64,000 nt of DNA from NCBI GenBank assembly GCA_016839585.1, contig JAEOTZ010000017.1, positions 1 to 64,000 of the forward strand. Reading direction: 5' to 3'. The position numbers were made by a program, and so were the translations under genes. Under the pieces are notes generated by a model, which searched no databases, was not told the origin of the DNA, and saw only the letters and a program-made list of their open reading frames with translations. Positions 2,012-12,851 of this stretch are shown here, piece after piece. The DNA comes from Promethearchaeota archaeon. GTDB taxonomy: Archaea; Asgardarchaeota; Lokiarchaeia; Sigyniarchaeales; SOKP01. How positions within the stretch are numbered: the first letter of the stretch is position 1; each line of letters opens with the position of its first letter.

Positions 2012-2968
2012 TTGAAAAATAGGAAAGAAAATAATCCGGAAATCTCAAGTTGTCAACATAAAAACATTAAGAAAGATGCAGGATTTTATGTTTGCCAAGA
2101 TTGTGGTTTAATCTTAGATGAAAATGTAGTATTCGAAGGTGATCTTTATTTTAGTGATTCTGATTCACAAAGAGATTATGAAAGGAGAATTAGAATTAGT
2201 GATTCCAAGGCCCTCCAAGATCCCATTATCAAAGAAAAATATGAACGAATAAAAACACTTGAGAAATGGTTTCGTGATTATGAATCTGATTTTACAGAAC
2301 AAAAAAAAACTATTGAGCTTCTTAAGAGTTATGGAATTGGATTGAATATAGATTCAATTAAATACCAAACTGTTAAGGATAGGTATCTGAAATACAATAA
2401 ATATCATAGACATACATATCAGAATATGGTAATTATTTTTTTAGCTATTGTTTGGATGGAAATTAAAGATACAACTAATATTCGAATTGAAGAATATATT
2501 AAAGCTTCAAGGGAGTTAGGTCATAAGGTAAATAAGAAAATGCTGAATAATGCTATGCTAAAAGTGAAGCGAACTGAGAAAATGTTAAATAAAAAGTATA
2601 AGAACGTTTCAGATATCGAAAAAGACATTAAAAACAAAATAAAAATTGTATTTCAAAAAGGTTTAAACGGAATTGCCTTTGAGAAAGTTTCTGATCAAAT
2701 CAAAACAGAAGAACAGTTTAATAAATTAAAACTAGACATGATGCTAATGGCAGATGAGTATCTCATAAACATCTCTTATGATCATTTAAAAAATTTAAAT
2801 TATAAAGCCTTCACCGCAGGATTGATTTATTATATTGGTCAAACTTTAGATAAAAAACGGAAAATTTTTACTCAAAGTCTTATTGAAGAGACTACTAAAT
2901 TTTCTAGTACAACGATAAGAAAAAAATATCATCTTTTAGTAGATATTTTAGGAGATCCTCGAAAATAA
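2012..2968 (+). CDS. Divergent TFIIB-like protein (Zn ribbon + cyclin folds)
   Basis: CQH...CQDCG Zn ribbon; C-terminal KAFTAGLIY...FTQSLI...SSTTIRKKY resembles the second TFB cyclin repeat and helix-turn-helix. Confidence 0.7.
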   Translation: MKNRKENNPEISSCQHKNIKKDAGFYVCQDCGLILDENVVFEGDLYFSDSDSQRDYERRIRISDSKALQDPIIKEKYERIKTLEKWFRDYESDFTEQKKTIELLKSYGIGLNIDSIKYQTVKDRYLKYNKYHRHTYQNMVIIFLAIVWMEIKDTTNIRIEEYIKASRELGHKVNKKMLNNAMLKVKRTEKMLNKKYKNVSDIEKDIKNKIKIVFQKGLNGIAFEKVSDQIKTEEQFNKLKLDMMLMADEYLINISYDHLKNLNYKAFTAGLIYYIGQTLDKKRKIFTQSLIEETTKFSSTTIRKKYHLLVDILGDPRK

Positions 2969-3104: not shown

Positions 3105-5975
3105 ATGTCCCAAGATAAATTTACTAATTCTTCTGATAATAAATATTATTATCAATCTATTAAGGATTTAATTAGTAAATTTAATACAAACTTTGACTAT
3201 GGTTTAAATTCTATAGAATTAAAAGAGAGATACTTTAAATTTGGATATAACGAACTTCCAAAAATAAAAAAATCATTATGGAAAATATATTTATCTCCAA
3301 TTTTTAATTTCTTAATTGTCATTTTAATAATTTCTGGAACTTTTATTGCTATATTAGGATCTCCCGGCTCTGCAGCGATAATTTTTGTTGTAGTTTTTAT
3401 AAACTCTATAACAATTGTAATACAACAATTTAGAGCACAGAAAGCATTAGAATCTTTAAAAAAAATTGCTGCTCTAAAGGCGACTGTTCTAAGAGATGGT
3501 TTACAATTTGAAATTCCTACCAGAGAACTAGTTCCTGGCGATATTATTTTATTAGAGCAAGGTGATAAAGTTCCTGCTGATGCTAGAATAATTGAACTCA
3601 TGAATTTTACTGTTAATGAAGCTAGTCTTACCGGAGAATCTGAACCTGTTGAAAAAATCAAATCTGTCTTACAAAGAAAAGATTTACCTATCCAAGAACA
3701 AATCAATATGGTTTTTATGGGGACTTTTGTTAATACAGGTAGATGTAAAGCATTAGTAACAGGTACTGGTGTTAATACAGAAATAGGTAAAATATCAGTT
3801 CAATTAAATGCAATGGGAAGTATTGAAGATATCCCACTAACTAGAAAGTTAAATAGATTGGGATATATCTTAGGATTTATCGCAATCTTTATTTTATCTA
3901 TATTAATTACTTATAAATTTATATTTTTAGCTGTAGAAGGAGATTTTAATGAAGAGTTCATTGGTGAAGCACTAGTTAGTTCTATTTTAAGATCCACTAA
4001 TGTCGTTCCATTTAATTTACCATTATTATCAACCTTAGTTTTAATAACTGGTGTACTTGAAATAGCTCAGAGTGGAGTAATCATAAAAAATTTATCAGCT
4101 ATTGAATCTCTTGGTCGCGTATCTGTAATATGTTCCGATAAAACAGGCACTATCACGAAAAATGAGATGACAATTAAGAAATTCTGGTTAAATAAAATAG
4201 AATATGAAGTTACTGGATCTGGATATGATGCTGAAGGTGAAATTTTGAAAGATGGGATTAAAACTAATTTAAAAGATAATTTAACCTTCCAAAAGTTTAT
4301 TGATTCTATTGTTCTAAACAACAATGCAAATTTAATATATGAAGATGTTAAAGTACGAGTTAAAAATATGACAGAAATAGCTGTAAGAAGAGCGTTAGGT
4401 TCTCCTACCGAAGCTTCTTTATTAGTACTTGCTGAAATAGCGGGATATATTACATATGATATCAAAAGCAAATATGAAGTTCTAAAAGAATTTTCATTTG
4501 AATCTGAATTAAAACGAATGACTACAATTTGTATGTCTAATCACAGTAAAAATGTATTATATGCTTTTTCAAAAGGAGCTCCTGAAAAATTGATAACTCT
4601 CTGCTCTCAGATTGAAATTAATGGTAAAATCCAAGCGATCGATAATGATTTAAAACGTGAGATATTAAATCAAATAGAAGTACGTGCAAATGAAGGTTAT
4701 AGAACCTTAGCTATAGCATATAAACAATTGCAAGATAATAATTATCAAGAGAGAGATTCCATTGAGAGAGATTTAATTTTCTTAAGTTTCGTATCCATAT
4801 TAGATCCCCCTCGAGTTGGCGTTAAAGAATCAATAGAAGAATGTCAATCAGGAAGGATAAAAGTCGCTATAGTAACGGGAGATCACCCCGCAACAGCAAA
4901 AACTATAGCCATACAGATGAGCATTTTTAAAGAAGGGGATTTAGTAATAGAGGGCTCTGAGATCGAAAAGCTAAGTATAGAAGATTTCAATAAAGTATCA
5001 GTTTTCGCGAGGGTGGAACCAACAGATAAAGAAATAATAGTAGAAAATTACCAAAAACAAAATAAAATAGTAGCAATGACAGGTGATGGGATCAATGATT
5101 CACCAGCATTGAAGAAAGCTCAAGCTGGAATAGCTATGGGTATAACAGGTACAGATCTAGCTAAAGAAACTTCCGATATGGTAATTTCTGATGATAATTT
5201 TACGTCAATTGTTAAGGGCGTAAAAATTGGGCGTGGTCTATTTGCTAAAATCCGAACGATTATTTATTTCTTTATTTGTCTAAATATAATGGAAGCGTTT
5301 ATTTTCTTTACCTATGAATTTATTCCATTTTTCGAACTTTTTAGTTCTGAATGGCAACACATTTATATATTTGGAATTGTACATTCATTACCATCTCTAG
5401 CATTAGTAATCGATACATATCCTAAAGATATTATGCAAGATCCACCCCGAGATGAAGAAGAACTTTTAAATAAAAATATGTGGCTACTTTTGTTAATTCA
5501 GGCATTTTTAATGGGAATAGGGTTAGTTTTAGTTTTTCAATTAACATATAATGGAATTTTTCCATTGAATGAATGGAATACTAATTCTAATTTAAGTTAT
5601 TTAGTACTTGACTCAGAAGAATGGATAGCTCAAAAAGCAAGAACTATGTTTATAACAACCCTATATATCGCAGAAACTAACTTTATATGGGCTTTTAGGA
5701 GACCGAACAAATCAATTATTAAATCCTTAAAAGAAGAATTAAGCATGGCGGTTTTAATTGTCTGTTTATTCACTTTAGGACTTCATATTCTTCATATCTG
5801 TTTCTCATATCAAATAAACTATTATATCAATGATGTAAGTGGTCTTAATTTTCAAATAAACTTTATGTTCTTAAGTGGCTTAGACTGGTTAGTTTGTGTA
5901 TTATTTGCCCTTCCAGGAATAGTTGGAATAGAATTAGTGAAATATTTTGCTAGAAATAAGAATATAAATTTTTAA
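3105..5975 (+). CDS. P-type ATPase, P2A-like scaffold with atypical M4/M6 transport site
   Basis: TGES, DKTGT, KGAPE, DPPR, TGD, GDGIND; M4 PFNLP instead of PEGLP; His at the M6 Asp position. Confidence 0.93.
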   Translation: MSQDKFTNSSDNKYYYQSIKDLISKFNTNFDYGLNSIELKERYFKFGYNELPKIKKSLWKIYLSPIFNFLIVILIISGTFIAILGSPGSAAIIFVVVFINSITIVIQQFRAQKALESLKKIAALKATVLRDGLQFEIPTRELVPGDIILLEQGDKVPADARIIELMNFTVNEASLTGESEPVEKIKSVLQRKDLPIQEQINMVFMGTFVNTGRCKALVTGTGVNTEIGKISVQLNAMGSIEDIPLTRKLNRLGYILGFIAIFILSILITYKFIFLAVEGDFNEEFIGEALVSSILRSTNVVPFNLPLLSTLVLITGVLEIAQSGVIIKNLSAIESLGRVSVICSDKTGTITKNEMTIKKFWLNKIEYEVTGSGYDAEGEILKDGIKTNLKDNLTFQKFIDSIVLNNNANLIYEDVKVRVKNMTEIAVRRALGSPTEASLLVLAEIAGYITYDIKSKYEVLKEFSFESELKRMTTICMSNHSKNVLYAFSKGAPEKLITLCSQIEINGKIQAIDNDLKREILNQIEVRANEGYRTLAIAYKQLQDNNYQERDSIERDLIFLSFVSILDPPRVGVKESIEECQSGRIKVAIVTGDHPATAKTIAIQMSIFKEGDLVIEGSEIEKLSIEDFNKVSVFARVEPTDKEIIVENYQKQNKIVAMTGDGINDSPALKKAQAGIAMGITGTDLAKETSDMVISDDNFTSIVKGVKIGRGLFAKIRTIIYFFICLNIMEAFIFFTYEFIPFFELFSSEWQHIYIFGIVHSLPSLALVIDTYPKDIMQDPPRDEEELLNKNMWLLLLIQAFLMGIGLVLVFQLTYNGIFPLNEWNTNSNLSYLVLDSEEWIAQKARTMFITTLYIAETNFIWAFRRPNKSIIKSLKEELSMAVLIVCLFTLGLHILHICFSYQINYYINDVSGLNFQINFMFLSGLDWLVCVLFALPGIVGIELVKYFARNKNINF

Positions 5976-6023
5976 TACAATTATTTCATTAAATTTAAAA
6001 TTAATATTTAAAAAGAGAATATT

Positions 6024-6830
6024 ATGGCTGAAATATCCTCCAACGTTCAAACAGAAAAAAAACCTTTTCTTAGAAAATATGGGGGTCTCCTCTTTATCAG
6101 TGGAATTGTATTATTATTTGTAATTTTGGCACTAGCTAATATTAACTTTGGACAATGGCTCGCTGATACAATTTATTGGTTTTATGAGGAATTTGGAGAT
6201 GTTGGAATCTATATAGGGGTTTTTGTTATAAGTATATTTGGTAATTTCACAGTTATTTTTCCAGTGCCGTATGTAATCGCCGTGATTGTAGTTTCCGCCG
6301 TAATCCCTGGAGTAAATCCCTTATTATTGGGTCTTGTTGGAGGATTGGGAGCAAGTATAGGAGAAACTACAGCATGGCTAATTGGACGCGGATCACAAAA
6401 AATGATAGGAGATGTTGAAAGTATTGAACGGATGAAAGGATACGTTGAGAAGGGCTGGGCTCCATTAATAATATTTATTTTTGCTGCAACCCCTTTACCT
6501 GATGATGCATTTTTAATCGTATTAGGAATCGTAGAGTATAGCATTATTAAAACATTAATATATACATTTATTGGCAAATTTGTTCTCTGTTCTTTATGTA
6601 GTGCCCTTCCCATTTGGTATGCAGATACTCCATTAGGTGATTTTTTATTCAACTTATTTGGAATTGATCTTGAGGCAGCTCAATCTGGGAGTATACCCCC
6701 TAGTACTCCTTTAGAGATTTTAACAAGTTCATTAGTTTGGGCAACTGTTATCATAATTATGTTCTTACTAGTCTATGTGGACTGGGGAAAAATTCTTAAA
6801 AGAATAAGAAAAAAAAAACCTAATGAGTAA
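6024..6830 (+). CDS. VTT/DedA superfamily (VMP1-like) membrane protein, putative lipid scramblase
   Basis: FPVP re-entrant motif, GLGASIGE...W.IGRG, FAATPLPDD...LG. Confidence 0.85.
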   Translation: MAEISSNVQTEKKPFLRKYGGLLFISGIVLLFVILALANINFGQWLADTIYWFYEEFGDVGIYIGVFVISIFGNFTVIFPVPYVIAVIVVSAVIPGVNPLLLGLVGGLGASIGETTAWLIGRGSQKMIGDVESIERMKGYVEKGWAPLIIFIFAATPLPDDAFLIVLGIVEYSIIKTLIYTFIGKFVLCSLCSALPIWYADTPLGDFLFNLFGIDLEAAQSGSIPPSTPLEILTSSLVWATVIIIMFLLVYVDWGKILKRIRKKKPNE

Positions 6831-6997
6831 TTTGATTCATATGTCTTAAAATAAATTCTTAAATAATACTCGAATTGTATTTTTTGAAAAAAGGAATAAA
6901 TTAAAAATTATAATTGTTATTGTCTATTTATTAGATCTAAAAAGAAAAATTTAGAGAATTTTCTTTTGATCCTATTCAAACTTATGGCAGAATTAAT

Positions 6998-9898
6998 ATG
7001 GAAAAAGTAGAAGAAAATTTTTATAATCTTGCCCTAGAACAAATTTATCAAAAAATTAAAACTAATCCTAATAAAGGTTTAACAACAACTGAAGCTAATA
7101 AGAGGCTAGAGAAATTTGGTCTTAATGAAATACCAAAAGTATCAAAAGGATTTATCAAGATATATTTAGCACCTCTATTTAACTGGTTAATCGTAATTTA
7201 CTTAATCGGAGCTCTTATACTATTTTTAGCTAGTATTTTTGGGGGAGAAGGAAGCCTACTTTTTATAGGTTTGACTTTAGGTATTGTTTTTCTTAATTGT
7301 ATGGTGGCTATAATTCAGCAATATAGGGCCACAAAAAAATTAAAAGCATTAAGAGAATTATCTGCTCCAACCGCAACTATTATTAGAGATAATCAGAAAC
7401 AAGATATTCCCACAAAAGAAATTGTAATGGGAGATTTACTAGTCTTAAACCAAGGAGATAAAATTCCGGCTGATGCTAGAATTGTAGAATCTTTTAATCT
7501 GGAAGTTAACGAAGCATCACTTACAGGTGAATCAGAACCAGTTAAAAAATTAAGGAAAGGAGATGCATTAGGCAAAGATGAAATTCCTATAAGTGATCGT
7601 AAAAATATGGTTTTTTACGGGACATATATAACTATTGGAAATGGTACAGCAATTACTGTAAAAACTGGTGGAGATACTGAAATTGGTAAAATTTCCCACG
7701 GTTTGGAGGAAGCTGGAACGTCCGAAATCCCTATTCGTCAAAAATTGAACCACTTTGGTAAATGGTTAGGTCTAATCATCTTTATTTTTTGGTTTATTTC
7801 ATTGATGATGATATGGGCAGCCACAAGATTTACTGAAGATCCTGAAGTAGTTAAAAGTTTGAACTCTGCCCTTGACTTGATGCCATTGAACATCCCATTA
7901 CTTGTCACAATTGTATTAATCACAGGAGTCTTATCAATGGCGCGATATGGCGTTATTATAAGAAATCTGGCTTCTGTTGACAGCTTAGGTCGTGTAAGTG
8001 TTGTTTGCTCAGATAAAACTGGTACATTAACTAAAAATCAAATGTCGATTCAACATGTCTGGACAAATGGATCATTATATAGAGTAACTGGTAGCGGTTA
8101 TTCTCCAGAGGGGGATATAATTTTAATGGATGACCCGAAAAATCCCGAATACGTACGCCATATTGATGATTATCCTCAATTAAAACTTCTTTTAATTTCT
8201 GGATTTTTAAATAACAATTCTGCCCTCATAAAAAATGAAATTGAAACTCCTAGGAAAATTGTTTATAATTGGAATGTGGTGGGATCTCCAACAGAAGGAG
8301 CCTTAATGGTTCTGTTTCAAAAAGGGATGGGTGATTATCTTCTTGATGATTTTGAATCAATTACTGAATTTCCGTTTGATTCAGCTTTAAAACGAATGAC
8401 AAAAATTTACAAAAGAGAAGACAAATTGTACTCATTTACTAAAGGTGCTAGTGAGATATTAATCCCTTTATGTTCTGCAATTTTATACAATAATAATGAA
8501 GTGAAATTTATTGATGAAATAAAAGCTAAAGTAATGGATATAGTAAATCTTTATGCAAATCAAGGTTATCGAATTTTAAGCTTAGCTTATAAGAAGCTAG
8601 ATGAGTTACCTCCCGAAGGAGAAGAAAGTAGGGTTCAATGCGAATCAGAAATGATCTATATTGGATTTGTGACAATATTAGATCCTCCTAGAGAGGGTGT
8701 GAAAGAATCAGTGATACAATGTCATGAGGCAGGTGTAGATGTTATTATGATAACAGGTGATTCAACGATGACAGCAAGAGCTATAGCTTCACAAATTGGT
8801 ATCATAACTGAAGAAAGTGAAATTGTTCTTGAAGGAAGCCAAATTAAAGACGTAAAGACCTTCTTTGACTTTAATAAGATTAAAGCATTTGCAAGAGTAT
8901 CTCCTGAGCATAAAGAAGATATTATTGAAAAATATCAAGCAACCAAAAAAGTAGTTGCTATGACGGGTGATGGAGTAAATGATAGTTTAGCCTTAAATAT
9001 GGCTGATGCAGGTATAGCTATGGGCATAACAGGAACAGATGTAGCTAAAGAAGCTTCCGATATGGTTATTTCAGATGATTCATTTAACTCGATTGTCACA
9101 GGTATCCATCACGGAAGAGGTATTTTTGCGAGGATCCGTGCACTAGTTTTCTTTTATATTTGTATAAATATATTTGAAGGTATCGTTCAATTTATATTAG
9201 CTGTAGTCTTTGAATTACCATACTTTTTAGATGAAGCGTTTTATTTACAATGGATTTTCTTATCGATCACTCTCCATATGTTTCCTGGATTAATACTTGC
9301 TTTTGATACAACTTCAAAAGATGTTATGAAAGAAAAACCTCGCGATTCAGAAGAAATACTCTCTAAAAATGTGTTAGTACTTCTGTTTATATTTGGAATT
9401 TTACTTGCAATTAGTATGGTTTTAGTATACTTCTTAACAATGAGTGAAATTTGGCCTGTCGTTACTGAAAATTGGGATTTAGGTAATGCATTTCTCTATT
9501 CATCAGATGAATTGATTCCAGATATTTTAACAGATGATTATACATTAGAAGAGATTAGAATAATGGCTAAAACTCTAACTATGTTAATGGTAACTTTATT
9601 TTTCTGTGAATCATTTTTAGTGTTTCAGATAAGACGTCCAAATAAATCCTTAATCAGAAGTCTTAAAGAAGATAGCAATAAACGAATGTACCTAATAATT
9701 GGTTTCTTATTTGCTTTATTTCTTATGTTAATGTACATCCCTAATGCTCAAGTTGCTTTAGCAAGAGCTGGAATTAATTTCATGTTTATGTATTTAACTG
9801 CTCTTGATTGGCTGATTTGTTTCTTGATTTCACTGATATGTATTATAACTTTTGAGTTTGTGAAATATATAGCACGCAAGTATAAAATTTCCTTTTAA
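6998..9898 (+). CDS. P-type ATPase, P2A-like paralog with atypical M4/M6 site
   Basis: TGES, DKTGT, KGASE, DPPR, GDGVND; M4 PLNIP; M6 SITLHMFP. Confidence 0.93.
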   Translation: MEKVEENFYNLALEQIYQKIKTNPNKGLTTTEANKRLEKFGLNEIPKVSKGFIKIYLAPLFNWLIVIYLIGALILFLASIFGGEGSLLFIGLTLGIVFLNCMVAIIQQYRATKKLKALRELSAPTATIIRDNQKQDIPTKEIVMGDLLVLNQGDKIPADARIVESFNLEVNEASLTGESEPVKKLRKGDALGKDEIPISDRKNMVFYGTYITIGNGTAITVKTGGDTEIGKISHGLEEAGTSEIPIRQKLNHFGKWLGLIIFIFWFISLMMIWAATRFTEDPEVVKSLNSALDLMPLNIPLLVTIVLITGVLSMARYGVIIRNLASVDSLGRVSVVCSDKTGTLTKNQMSIQHVWTNGSLYRVTGSGYSPEGDIILMDDPKNPEYVRHIDDYPQLKLLLISGFLNNNSALIKNEIETPRKIVYNWNVVGSPTEGALMVLFQKGMGDYLLDDFESITEFPFDSALKRMTKIYKREDKLYSFTKGASEILIPLCSAILYNNNEVKFIDEIKAKVMDIVNLYANQGYRILSLAYKKLDELPPEGEESRVQCESEMIYIGFVTILDPPREGVKESVIQCHEAGVDVIMITGDSTMTARAIASQIGIITEESEIVLEGSQIKDVKTFFDFNKIKAFARVSPEHKEDIIEKYQATKKVVAMTGDGVNDSLALNMADAGIAMGITGTDVAKEASDMVISDDSFNSIVTGIHHGRGIFARIRALVFFYICINIFEGIVQFILAVVFELPYFLDEAFYLQWIFLSITLHMFPGLILAFDTTSKDVMKEKPRDSEEILSKNVLVLLFIFGILLAISMVLVYFLTMSEIWPVVTENWDLGNAFLYSSDELIPDILTDDYTLEEIRIMAKTLTMLMVTLFFCESFLVFQIRRPNKSLIRSLKEDSNKRMYLIIGFLFALFLMLMYIPNAQVALARAGINFMFMYLTALDWLICFLISLICIITFEFVKYIARKYKISF

Positions 9899-9974: not shown

Positions 9975-10517
9975 ATGTTAAAAGGAAAAAAAGTTATTCT
10001 TGCTCCACCTAAAAGAGAATATATAGACACTTTTATTAAATGGATAAATGATCCAGAAATAACTCAATACTTACTAGTATTTAGACCTATGACTAAAGAA
10101 ATGGAAGAAGAATGGTTTGAGTCATTAAAAGATAGGGAAAATAACTTTCTTTTCTCTATACTCATTCCATTAAATGATGGTTCAGAAAAGCTTATAGGAA
10201 ATTGCGGAATCCACAAGATCGACTGGAAAAATAGAGTGGGAGAATGTGGTATAATGATTGGGGAAAAATCAGAACAAAGTAAAGGTTATGGTACAGAAGC
10301 GATGGAATTATTAATTAATTATGGTTTTAATACTCTAAATCTTAATAGGCTCCAGTTAAGTGTTTATGATTTTAATATCTCTGCTATAAAATTATATAAA
10401 AAAGTAGGGTTCATAGAAGAAGGTCGAAAAAGAAAGGCACATTTTGTTAATGGAGAATACCATGATCTAATCATTATGGGTATATTGAATGAAGAATGGG
10501 TAGAAAATAAAAAATAA
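9975..10517 (+). CDS. GNAT N-acetyltransferase, RimJ/RimL family
   Basis: IDWKNRVGECGIMIG...KGYGTEAM...N.SAIKLYKKVGF.EEG. Confidence 0.92.
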   Translation: MLKGKKVILAPPKREYIDTFIKWINDPEITQYLLVFRPMTKEMEEEWFESLKDRENNFLFSILIPLNDGSEKLIGNCGIHKIDWKNRVGECGIMIGEKSEQSKGYGTEAMELLINYGFNTLNLNRLQLSVYDFNISAIKLYKKVGFIEEGRKRKAHFVNGEYHDLIIMGILNEEWVENKK

Positions 10518-10525
10518 TATTATTT

Positions 10526-11566
10526 CTATAATTCTTTAAAATAGGGGATAATTTTATCCCGAAAAATTTCGTAAACTTTGTTAGGGTCAGGTCCTCTATT
10601 CATTATACTAATGTGTGTTGCACCAGCTTCTTTATATTTTTCTATATTTGAAATAACATCGTCTGTTGTACCTAAACAGTTAAAATCCTGGAGAATAGTT
10701 TCAGGTAATCGCTTTAAGTTATTTAGATAATCTGATGTGACATTACTACTTATATCATAATCATGAACATTAAAATTTTCAGGTAGATTTAAATTTGGAT
10801 ATGCTTCATTTGTAATCCAAGAATTTAACAAATAAGAAATTTTAAAGAATTCACATCTTTTTATTGCATTATCAGGATCATTGTCATCTATTGCTACAAA
10901 ACAATCATATACATAATCAATTTCAGAGGGATCCCGACCAGCCTTTTTTGCAGCATTATAGACTTCTGTGTAATTTTTCTTATAGAGCCATGGTGGTTGG
11001 TAAAGCGGATACCATCCATCTGCTAATTCTCCAGTTAATTGACGAGTTTTTGGACCATTAGCAGCAACATAAATCGGTGGATTCTTCTGAACTGGTTTTA
11101 TTTGAATATAAGCATTTTTTATCTCTCCCCAGAATTCACTTATTTTGTTGACTCTTTTCTTAGTCCAAAATTTTCTCATTAATATAATATATTCTCTTAA
11201 TTTTGAAACGGATTTATTTCTATTTAATCCATACATATCGATATTCATTGCTTCACCTGCTCCGAGCCCTATCATGCCTCTTCCATTAGAAATTTGATCT
11301 AAAGTAGCTACTTTGTGTGCCATTAAGGCAGGATGAAAACGATGACAATCAGAAACGCCAGTACACAATTTTATTTTTTTTGTTATCATTGCTAAAGATG
11401 ATAAAAAACAGTAAGCATCATAACAAGTTCCTGGTCCTGGAGGTAACATTGCTGTGTGATCTGCATAAAAAATTCCAAAAAAACCACATTCCTCAGCCCT
11501 TTTTGTTCCTTCGAACATATATTCAAGACGAGGAGTAGGCACAGGAATATGAAAACTAAATCTCAT
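10526..11566 (-). CDS. LLM-class (F420/flavin-dependent) oxidoreductase
   Basis: ADH, ATLDQISNGR..GLGAG, PIYVAANGPK...GELADGW. Confidence 0.9.
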   Translation of the reverse strand: MRFSFHIPVPTPRLEYMFEGTKRAEECGFFGIFYADHTAMLPPGPGTCYDAYCFLSSLAMITKKIKLCTGVSDCHRFHPALMAHKVATLDQISNGRGMIGLGAGEAMNIDMYGLNRNKSVSKLREYIILMRKFWTKKRVNKISEFWGEIKNAYIQIKPVQKNPPIYVAANGPKTRQLTGELADGWYPLYQPPWLYKKNYTEVYNAAKKAGRDPSEIDYVYDCFVAIDDNDPDNAIKRCEFFKISYLLNSWITNEAYPNLNLPENFNVHDYDISSNVTSDYLNNLKRLPETILQDFNCLGTTDDVISNIEKYKEAGATHISIMNRGPDPNKVYEIFRDKIIPYFKEL

Positions 11567-11726
11567 AATTTATTAAATTTATAATATTTTATAAACTTCA
11601 ATTAAACTGTTTGCCTTAATTGTATATTTAAGAAAACCAAAAGCTATATTAAAATTTTAGACCTAATTTAATTATTGTTATAAATAGATTTTAAATGAGA
11701 TAACTATTGTTATAAGTTGTGATTAT

Positions 11727-12851
11727 ATGGACATTAGCGATATAAAAATAGGAACTGAAGGCAGTTTTGTTGGACCGATTGATGAGGGAATTAAAGGCAT
11801 AAAAAGAATTGAAGAAATTGGTTATGATTCGATCTGGATGGCTGATCATATAATGGGTTGGACTCCTGAATCAATTTGGACTCCAGATCTTATTAAAGCA
11901 GCAGCTTTTCAAGAAGATCCCCATTTTTTTCATGAAGTATATTCTATAATGGCTGTTGCAGCATGGAATACTAACAGGGTAATATTAGGCACAAGCGTTA
12001 CCGAAACTTTTAGAAGACATCCTGCAGTTCTAGCTCAAACATTATTAACTCAAGATCGAATCTCTAAAGGTAGAGTAATTTTAGGCATAGGAGCAGGAGA
12101 AGGAGAAAATGTAATCCCTTACGGTATTAAATGGGATAAGCCAGTTAGTAGATTAGAAGAAGCCATTAAAATTATAAGGTTATTGTGGGAAAATTATAAA
12201 AAAGTGAGTTATGATGGAGCGTTTTGGAAACTAAAGGATGCTGTTCTCACAATAAAACCTTACAAGGAAGGAATATACCCTCCTATATGGATTGCTGCTC
12301 ATGGACCAAAAATGCTTGACATAACGGGGAGATTAGGAGATGGATGGTTACCTGCATATTCTGATCCTCCTTCTTATAAGCTTAGATTGGACCATATTCG
12401 AAATTCTGCGAAAAAAGCGGGGAGAAACCCAGATGATATAACTCCTGGTCTTTGGAATTATTTAGTTATTGATGAAGATCATAATGTATGTGATGATTTA
12501 ATAGAGACTCCTGTTGTAAAAAATAATCTATTAACTTTTCCAAATGCAGTCTTTAAAGAATATGGTATTACACATCCTTTTGGGGAAGACTTTTACGGAT
12601 TGCTCGATTATATACCAACACGATATGATCGAGATACTGTTTTAGAAGCAATTAATAAAATACCAAAAAAAATGTGTGATGATAATATAATGCATGGTAC
12701 TCCTGATGAAATAATAAGCAAAATTGAAGAATATGCTAAAGTAGGCTTAAAACATATCGTATTTTATAATACAACGTATTTAGCTGATATGTCGAAAATT
12801 AAAAGCTCATTTAGTTGTATGAAAAAAGTCTTAAATTATTTCAAAGGCTAA
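11727..12851 (+). CDS. LLM-class (F420/flavin-dependent) oxidoreductase
   Basis: GYDSIWMADH, RHPAVLAQ..LTQDRISKGRVILGIGAG, PIWIAAHGPKML...GDGW. Confidence 0.9.
   Translation: MDISDIKIGTEGSFVGPIDEGIKGIKRIEEIGYDSIWMADHIMGWTPESIWTPDLIKAAAFQEDPHFFHEVYSIMAVAAWNTNRVILGTSVTETFRRHPAVLAQTLLTQDRISKGRVILGIGAGEGENVIPYGIKWDKPVSRLEEAIKIIRLLWENYKKVSYDGAFWKLKDAVLTIKPYKEGIYPPIWIAAHGPKMLDITGRLGDGWLPAYSDPPSYKLRLDHIRNSAKKAGRNPDDITPGLWNYLVIDEDHNVCDDLIETPVVKNNLLTFPNAVFKEYGITHPFGEDFYGLLDYIPTRYDRDTVLEAINKIPKKMCDDNIMHGTPDEIISKIEEYAKVGLKHIVFYNTTYLADMSKIKSSFSCMKKVLNYFKG

Follow-up and report, generated by a model that had tools for sequence, protein, structure and literature searches.

A 64,000-nt stretch of DNA from a Promethearchaeota archaeon (GenBank assembly GCA_016839585.1, contig JAEOTZ010000017.1, positions 1-64,000 of the forward strand), referred to below as the window, encodes two P-type ATPases, pumps A and B, and a DedA/VTT-type membrane protein whose gene lies between them. 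The GTDB lineage of the source is Archaea; Asgardarchaeota; Lokiarchaeia; Sigyniarchaeales; SOKP01. Both pumps belong to a group termed here the PxN/His family. Its working definition is a Pro-hydrophobic-Asn motif in transmembrane segment M4, N..E in M5, a His in M6 at the position of SERCA D800, a Glu in M8, and placement in one monophyletic clade. Judged from sequence comparisons, this family is distinct from the P2A Ca2+ pumps, stands as their sister group, extends across the Asgard archaea and is apparently undescribed. The locus is probably best explained by PxN/His cation pumps that have one rebuilt site and stand next to an independent DedA gene.

Catalytic motifs and transport site of pumps A and B

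Pumps A and B share 43% identity along their entire lengths and have one set of Pfam domains (Cation_ATPase_N, E1-E2_ATPase, Cation_ATPase, Hydrolase and Cation_ATPase_C). Their motifs and their scores against TIGR01494 (272-284 bits, cut-off 62) place them in the P-type ATPase superfamily. The original prediction, made from the letters of the window, stated that all catalytic motifs are kept, and both pumps indeed carry TGES, DKTGT, KGAxE, DPPR, TGD and GDGxND. Since the machinery for ATP hydrolysis and phospho-enzyme formation is intact, A and B would be working E1/E2 pumps.

The membrane-embedded site has been altered in the way first described. Where P2A pumps have PEGL in M4, pump A has PFNL (within NVVPFNL) and pump B PLNI (within DLMPLNI), the family consensus being P-[ILFVW]-N. 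In M6, the N..(T)D motif has given way to FGIVH (pump A) and SITLH (pump B). The N..E of M5 and the Glu of M8 are retained, in pump B as INIFE and FCESF. In a HMMER alignment to Listeria LMCA1, the PF of pump A falls on PE, that is, Phe on the M4 Glu, and the His falls on the M6 Asp. In terms of SERCA residues, the site II ligands E309 and N796 are lost and D800, which is shared by both sites, has become His; both pumps still have N768, E771 and E908, the ligands of site I. A new invariant Asn directly follows the M4 hydrophobic residue. An alignment of 47 family sequences shows P302, N304, E730 and H760 to be invariant and N727, E857 and Q108 to be near-invariant, and with the first four invariant the rebuilt site is not due to chance. 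The two pumps probably differ in specificity or regulation, since the M6 residues beside the His are F-G-I-V in A and S-I-T-L in B.

Scores against NCBIfam models rank the pumps closest to P2A (441-457 bits), followed by P2D, P2B and P2C, then P3, P5 (243 bits), P1B and lastly P4 (105-115 bits), and every equivalog cut-off is missed widely. The SERCA-type model TIGR01116 gives 441 bits for A and 424 for B against a cut-off of 703, TIGR01522 gives 420 and 457 bits against 798, and the P3A model TIGR01647 gives 327-343 bits against 615. With the P5 model TIGR01657 the scores are 243-244 bits against 618, and the pumps have no double Pro of the kind found in M4 of P5 pumps, PP(E/A)LP. The best sequence matches are LMCA1 (404 bits), SPCA1 (387 bits) and SERCA (336 bits).

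The genome of origin has five P-type ATPases: A, B, a canonical P2A pump and two CPC-type P1B pumps. The canonical pump (contig C60, 18709-21561, minus strand) displays the motifs SAVPEGL and LNIATDGIP. The P1B pumps are on contigs C3 and C9; one has a C-terminal Cys-rich extension with a resemblance to YHS/TRASH-type metal-binding domains, judged by eye only. The statement that A and B are not canonical Ca2+ pumps therefore stands, on the basis of the invariant replacements in M4 and M6, the low equivalog scores and the separate canonical pump in the same genome.

Comparison with known P-type ATPases reveals both likenesses and differences. With the P2A pumps (LMCA1, PDB 9euq/6zhf; SPCA1/PMR1; SERCA1a), the PxN/His pumps share the domain set, length class, catalytic motifs, PxxxP arrangement of M4, M5 N..E and M8 Glu. 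They differ in having hydrophobic-Asn in place of the M4 Glu-Gly, in the loss of the M6 Asn and the change of the M6 Asp to His, in QQ instead of QE in M2, and in forming a clade of their own that is centred on Asgard archaea. P3A proton pumps (AHA2, Pma1) have a P-I-x-x-P motif in M4 with Ile at the E309 position and a single protonatable residue at D800 that is central to the site, as do the PxN/His pumps, but that residue is Asp in P3A, where M5 also has an Arg, and His in the PxN/His pumps. The P4 flippases (ATP8A1/ATP8A2, Drs2p) resemble the PxN/His pumps in that the M4 Pro is followed by a hydrophobic residue, and an Asn three residues before this Pro is a further likeness of pump A. Unlike P4 pumps, the PxN/His pumps keep acidic residues in M5 and M8, a His in M6, TGES and PxNxP.

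Distribution of the PxN/His family

When pump A served as the query in an exhaustive search of 1.84 billion cluster representatives, ∼35 clusters were found with one signature, M4 P-[I/L/F/V/W]-N, M5 N..E, M6 His and M8 Glu. Beyond these, nearly all later matches have PEGLP and N..TD, with a few variants. A FastTree phylogeny of 140 representatives, rooted on the P1B pumps of the same genome, has a signature clade of 32 sequences (29 PxN/His pumps and three variants; SH-like support 96), and its sister group consists of 106 mostly canonical P2A-like pumps (96 with PEGL/Asp, the remainder variants). Both A and B carry the signature and fall within the clade.

With a profile built from the 47-sequence alignment and a threshold of E<=1e-200, the family is detected in 354 of the 400 Asgard-phylum genomes, and in 84 of the 90 that are of high quality. 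Close relatives carry Asgard source labels throughout (Promethearchaeota, Hod-, Thor-, Hel-, Hermod-, Odin- and Heimdallarchaeota). More distant members with the same motifs are found in a Bathyarchaeota metagenome-assembled genome and an Atabeyarchaeia genome. Across Lokiarchaeial loci, pump B orthologs are 64-94% identical, and pump A orthologs, with 54-93% identity, are directly upstream of B in 46 loci. Insertions of 59 residues in the B pumps of two loci (L041 and L054) were rejected as artefacts of scaffolding runs of N.

One Asgard family, f31 (loci L100-L103, L107 and L108), has a single PxN/His pump with the motifs TIMPINIP and VVTTHSFP. Its neighbours are panB, a DUF1858 gene, a metallo-beta-lactamase, a subtilase and an MFS transporter, in an order that is specific to the lineage and has no relation to the Lokiarchaeial block. 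Such neighbours of family members outside the Lokiarchaeial block gave no clue to a substrate.

An Asgard transporter survey labels these pumps as orthologs of a 'putative Ca2+ ATPase TC 3.A.3.2.21' (PMC7997004). Asgard goes unmentioned in a 2023 review devoted to open questions about P-type ATPases (PMC10654040). A description of the PxN/His family was not found in the literature searched, the coverage of which is incomplete.

The DedA/VTT gene

The middle gene, on the same strand as both pumps as originally reported, is accepted here as coding for a divergent DedA/VTT-family protein at the Pfam threshold, an assignment made from its sequence. Against PF09335 (VTT_dom) the protein scores 33.6 bits, with a cut-off of 33.9, and a six-frame search gives 36.2 bits, which is over the cut-off. 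The motifs FPVPY, GxxGE..W..G and TPLPDD are invariant, and FPVPY and TPLPDD represent the two Pro-containing re-entrant-loop motifs of the VTT fold. Resemblance to known clusters agrees with this fold: the ESM Atlas language-model feature score to VTT clusters is 0.93, and an AlphaFold2 model (pLDDT 75) has TM scores of 0.56 to a VTT cluster and 0.50 to a DedA-PAP2 cluster. No PDB entry, and thus no solved DedA structure, matched the model in a Foldseek search at E<=0.001. The protein resembles bacterial and archaeal DedA/VTT proteins (UptA-type polyprenyl-phosphate flippases, YqjA) and eukaryotic VMP1/TMEM41B in its probable VTT domain, the paired loop motifs and the fold match to VTT clusters, and differs from them in being a divergent subfamily.

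The genome holds three VTT genes, the middle gene included. Prometheoarchaeum is reported to have three DedA members, one of which is in the VMP1 branch (DedA superfamily paper, bioRxiv 10.1101/2020.12.18.423352). In the probable MK-D1 genome, there is only a relative with 31% identity. In GTDB family f18 (e.g. genome G082, L096:6563-8134), orthologs with ∼40% identity are contained within open frames of 497-569 amino acids; the VTT domain spans residues 132-224 and the rest has no Pfam match, and thus these are a fused or extended form.

Linkage between the pumps and the VTT gene

In 79 pump-centred loci fetched around relatives of pump B, the A-then-B tandem is present in ∼50 Lokiarchaeial loci, and a VTT gene is between the pumps in only 10. 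The spacer is bare, with a length of 74-236 nt, in ∼33 loci, and in five loci of another Lokiarchaeial clade it is filled by a 179-amino-acid C_GCAxxG_C_C gene (PF09719), which has decayed to remnants in two more. It seems that the A-B spacer takes up and loses small genes. The C_GCAxxG_C_C gene is found at L012:1218-1757 and in L018, L022 and L023, with remnants in L011, L020 and L064. A VTT profile hidden Markov model (HMM), which detected both paralogs in the genome of origin, found no further VTT gene in 74 pump-centred loci.

Whole genomes of the GTDB family to which the window belongs (f1) show the same pattern. Pumps are present in 124 of the 135 genomes, and VTT orthologs (E<1e-100) in ∼31. 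These are next to A or B in 19-20 genomes and elsewhere in 11, such that ∼90 of the 124 pump-bearing genomes are without a VTT ortholog and the linked share is ∼15%. Seven of the 11 unlinked VTT loci were fetched and have no ATPase within about 7 kb; their neighbours are genes for ProRS, TFIIB, an FAD-linked oxidase and a metallo-beta-lactamase. VTT orthologs of other Asgard families are 40-52% identical, and the four loci fetched also have no ATPase within 7 kb. One genome, G163, displays a variant order, with VTT upstream of A. Its locus (L098; G163:C44:20000-36000) reads TFIIB, orf, TFB-like, VTT, A, B, and a second A-like pump is on contig C74.

In a tree of B pumps rooted with A sequences, lineages without a VTT gene surround the two clades into which the loci with a VTT gene fall. 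The basal lineages, the first to branch off, have no VTT gene and carry A-B alone. Between the two clades, the VTT proteins are 71-73% identical and as diverged as the flanking pumps, which makes vertical inheritance, with local relocation and frequent loss, the likeliest history of the gene.

Gene order in the surrounding region is itself conserved. Most of ∼50 related loci share a collinear block consisting of TFIIB, an orf, a TFB-like gene, A, B, a GNAT gene and two luciferase-like genes. Because the whole block is collinear, gene adjacency is weak evidence of joint function here. The TFB-like gene, a part of this block, is directly upstream of A in 43 loci, and any functional tie to the pumps would be putative. 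In the window, the flanking parts of the block are at 316-2968 and 9975-12851, the orf is 196 amino acids long and on the minus strand, and the luciferase-like genes code for monooxygenases.

The original prediction had named the lack of a conserved linkage to the VTT gene as an outcome that would count against a joint pump-scramblase system. This is largely what is found: the linkage is kept in two clades, but in most genomes the VTT gene is unlinked or absent, and within the collinear block it is a lineage-restricted insertion. A complex prediction with the VTT protein, in which residues 1-345 and 690-956 of pump A were entered as two chains and each protein had an alignment, has a score of 0.00 and weighs neither way. 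The sequencing runs listed as containing the stretch are of marine-sediment DNA only, with no RNA run among them.

Proposed function of the locus

Pumps A and B may be viewed as two old paralogs within the PxN/His family. The change of the M4 Glu to Ile, Leu or Phe, together with the loss of the M6 Asn, would have erased Ca2+ site II. Site I would have been rebuilt, with the M5 Asn and Glu, the M6 His, the M8 Glu and the new invariant M4 Asn contributing to one putative pocket. The chemistry of such a pocket should suit a proton or a borderline divalent metal far better than Ca2+. Each pump probably binds one small cation other than Ca2+ and transports it; the likeliest cargo would be a proton or a His-liganded divalent metal, e.g. 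Mn2+, Fe2+, Zn2+, Ni2+ or Co2+. The VTT gene appears to be vertically inherited in this archaeal family, residing in the A-B spacer in some lineages and elsewhere in others, and to have been lost from most of them. By analogy with DedA/VTT proteins elsewhere, which are described in published papers as lipid or polyprenyl-phosphate flippases, the VTT protein probably acts alone, and its gene may at most share a transcript with pump A in the VTT-bearing lineages.

Several points weigh against this explanation. The designation 'small cation' is drawn solely from the His and the buried Glu residues that are kept. P4 flippases and P3A proton pumps likewise have a hydrophobic residue following the M4 Pro, and the N-x-x-P-hydrophobic of pump A is as in P4. 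The original prediction proposed a phylogeny to include P2A, P4 and P5 pumps; the sister relationship to P2A was obtained, but the tree is without eukaryotic P4 or P5 references. In the 10 loci with a VTT gene between the pumps, the gene starts 27-58 nt past A on the same strand and ends ∼170 nt before B (48 nt and 167 nt, respectively, in the window), which fits co-transcription. This exact position is kept in two diverged clades, and there may thus be some selective tie in these lineages.

Alternative explanations

The spacing of the VTT gene raises the question of whether, in the lineages that have the gene, its product is an optional accessory that binds to pump A and modulates it, recalling the action of metazoan VMP1 on SERCA. 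The tight conserved distance after A, held in two clades that are as diverged as the pumps, is what such a role would produce. Nevertheless, 11 related genomes have unlinked VTT orthologs with the same invariant motifs, the pumps have persisted through many losses of the gene, and it is upstream of A in G163; an accessory role is considered unlikely. The closely related proposal of an ancient SERCA-VMP1 partnership, also made originally, finds no support in gene linkage.

The lipid-transport module of the original prediction, in which the pumps flip a lipid or polyprenyl phosphate and the DedA/VTT protein serves, e.g., as an opposing scramblase, fares slightly worse and is quite improbable. 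It draws on the same spacing in the 10 loci, on the flipping activity of DedA/VTT proteins in other organisms, and on the hydrophobic residue in place of E309, which PISL of P4 pumps has as well, with the N-x-x-P-F-N-L of pump A as an added likeness. These M4 similarities do not extend to the rest of the protein. The actuator domain has TGES, not DGET, and M4 is of the PxNxP type of P2 and P3 pumps, with a second Pro, rather than PISL. P4 pumps have Lys and Asn where the PxN/His pumps keep the M5 and M8 Glu and the M6 His, and P4 flippases are not known to have these buried acids. The P4 model TIGR01652 falls far below its cut-off of 431 bits, and the family is sister to P2A. The A-VTT linkage is missing in ∼85% of pump-bearing f1 genomes and in the basal lineages, and the module as proposed is not supported by linkage. 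A variant in which PxN/His pumps move a lipid-like or bulky substrate, A-VTT is a remnant flippase-scramblase pair and the family is a prokaryotic relative of the P4 stem is given the slimmest chance of all.

There is little likelihood that the pumps still transport Ca2+ or Na+ with an unusual coordination, as the annotation 'Ca2+-transporting ATPase' would have it. LMCA1, SPCA1 and SERCA are the best matches and the M5 and M8 residues of site I are retained, but E309, N796 and D800 are replaced in every family member, the scores are far under the P2A equivalog cut-offs, and a canonical P2A pump coexists in the genome. A similarly small chance is assigned to A and B as one heteromeric machine, or to one pump regulating the other. 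This would explain why A-then-B is kept in ∼50 Lokiarchaeial loci with gaps of 74-236 nt, but both pumps keep every catalytic motif, and within a collinear block the tandem may be inherited gene order. In addition, in ten loci from other Asgard families just one family member is seen within ∼8 kb, though most of these genomes score two matches.

Features of the locus

Table 1. Positions in the window of pumps A and B, their transport-site motifs and adjacent genes
Feature	Position (nt)	Strand	Evidence
TFB-like gene, 318 aa, directly upstream of A	2012..2968	+	Zn_Ribbon_TF 22.8 bits (Pfam, weak TFIIB zinc ribbon)
Pump A, P-type ATPase of PxN/His family, 956 aa	3105..5975	+	Pfam domains, motifs
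Pump A M4 NVVPFNLP, aa 299-306 (Phe at SERCA E309, Asn at G310)	3999..4022	+	
Pump A M5 LNIME (N768/E771 equivalents)	5280..5294	+	
Pump A M6 IFGIVHSLP (His760 at SERCA D800)	5367..5393	+	
Pump A M8 IAETN (E908 equivalent)	5667..5681	+	
DedA/VTT-domain membrane protein, 268 aa	6024..6830	+	PF09335, motifs, AlphaFold2 model
Pump B, P-type ATPase of PxN/His family and paralog of A, 966 aa	6998..9898	+	Pfam domains, motifs
Pump B M4 DLMPLNIP, aa 293-300	7874..7897	+	
Pump B M6 LSITLHMFP (His760 at SERCA D800)	9260..9286	+	

Significance

The PxN/His family is large and near-universal among Asgard archaea. Its annotation is everywhere 'Ca2+-transporting ATPase', although its members would be unable to bind Ca2+ in the manner of known pumps. 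As the pump-scramblase partnership is not backed by linkage, work on the pumps should not follow the DedA neighbour. Discovery of the substrate would correct thousands of annotations and, in a very well-studied class of enzymes, would add a new transport chemistry with a His-centred site to those found on the P2 scaffold.

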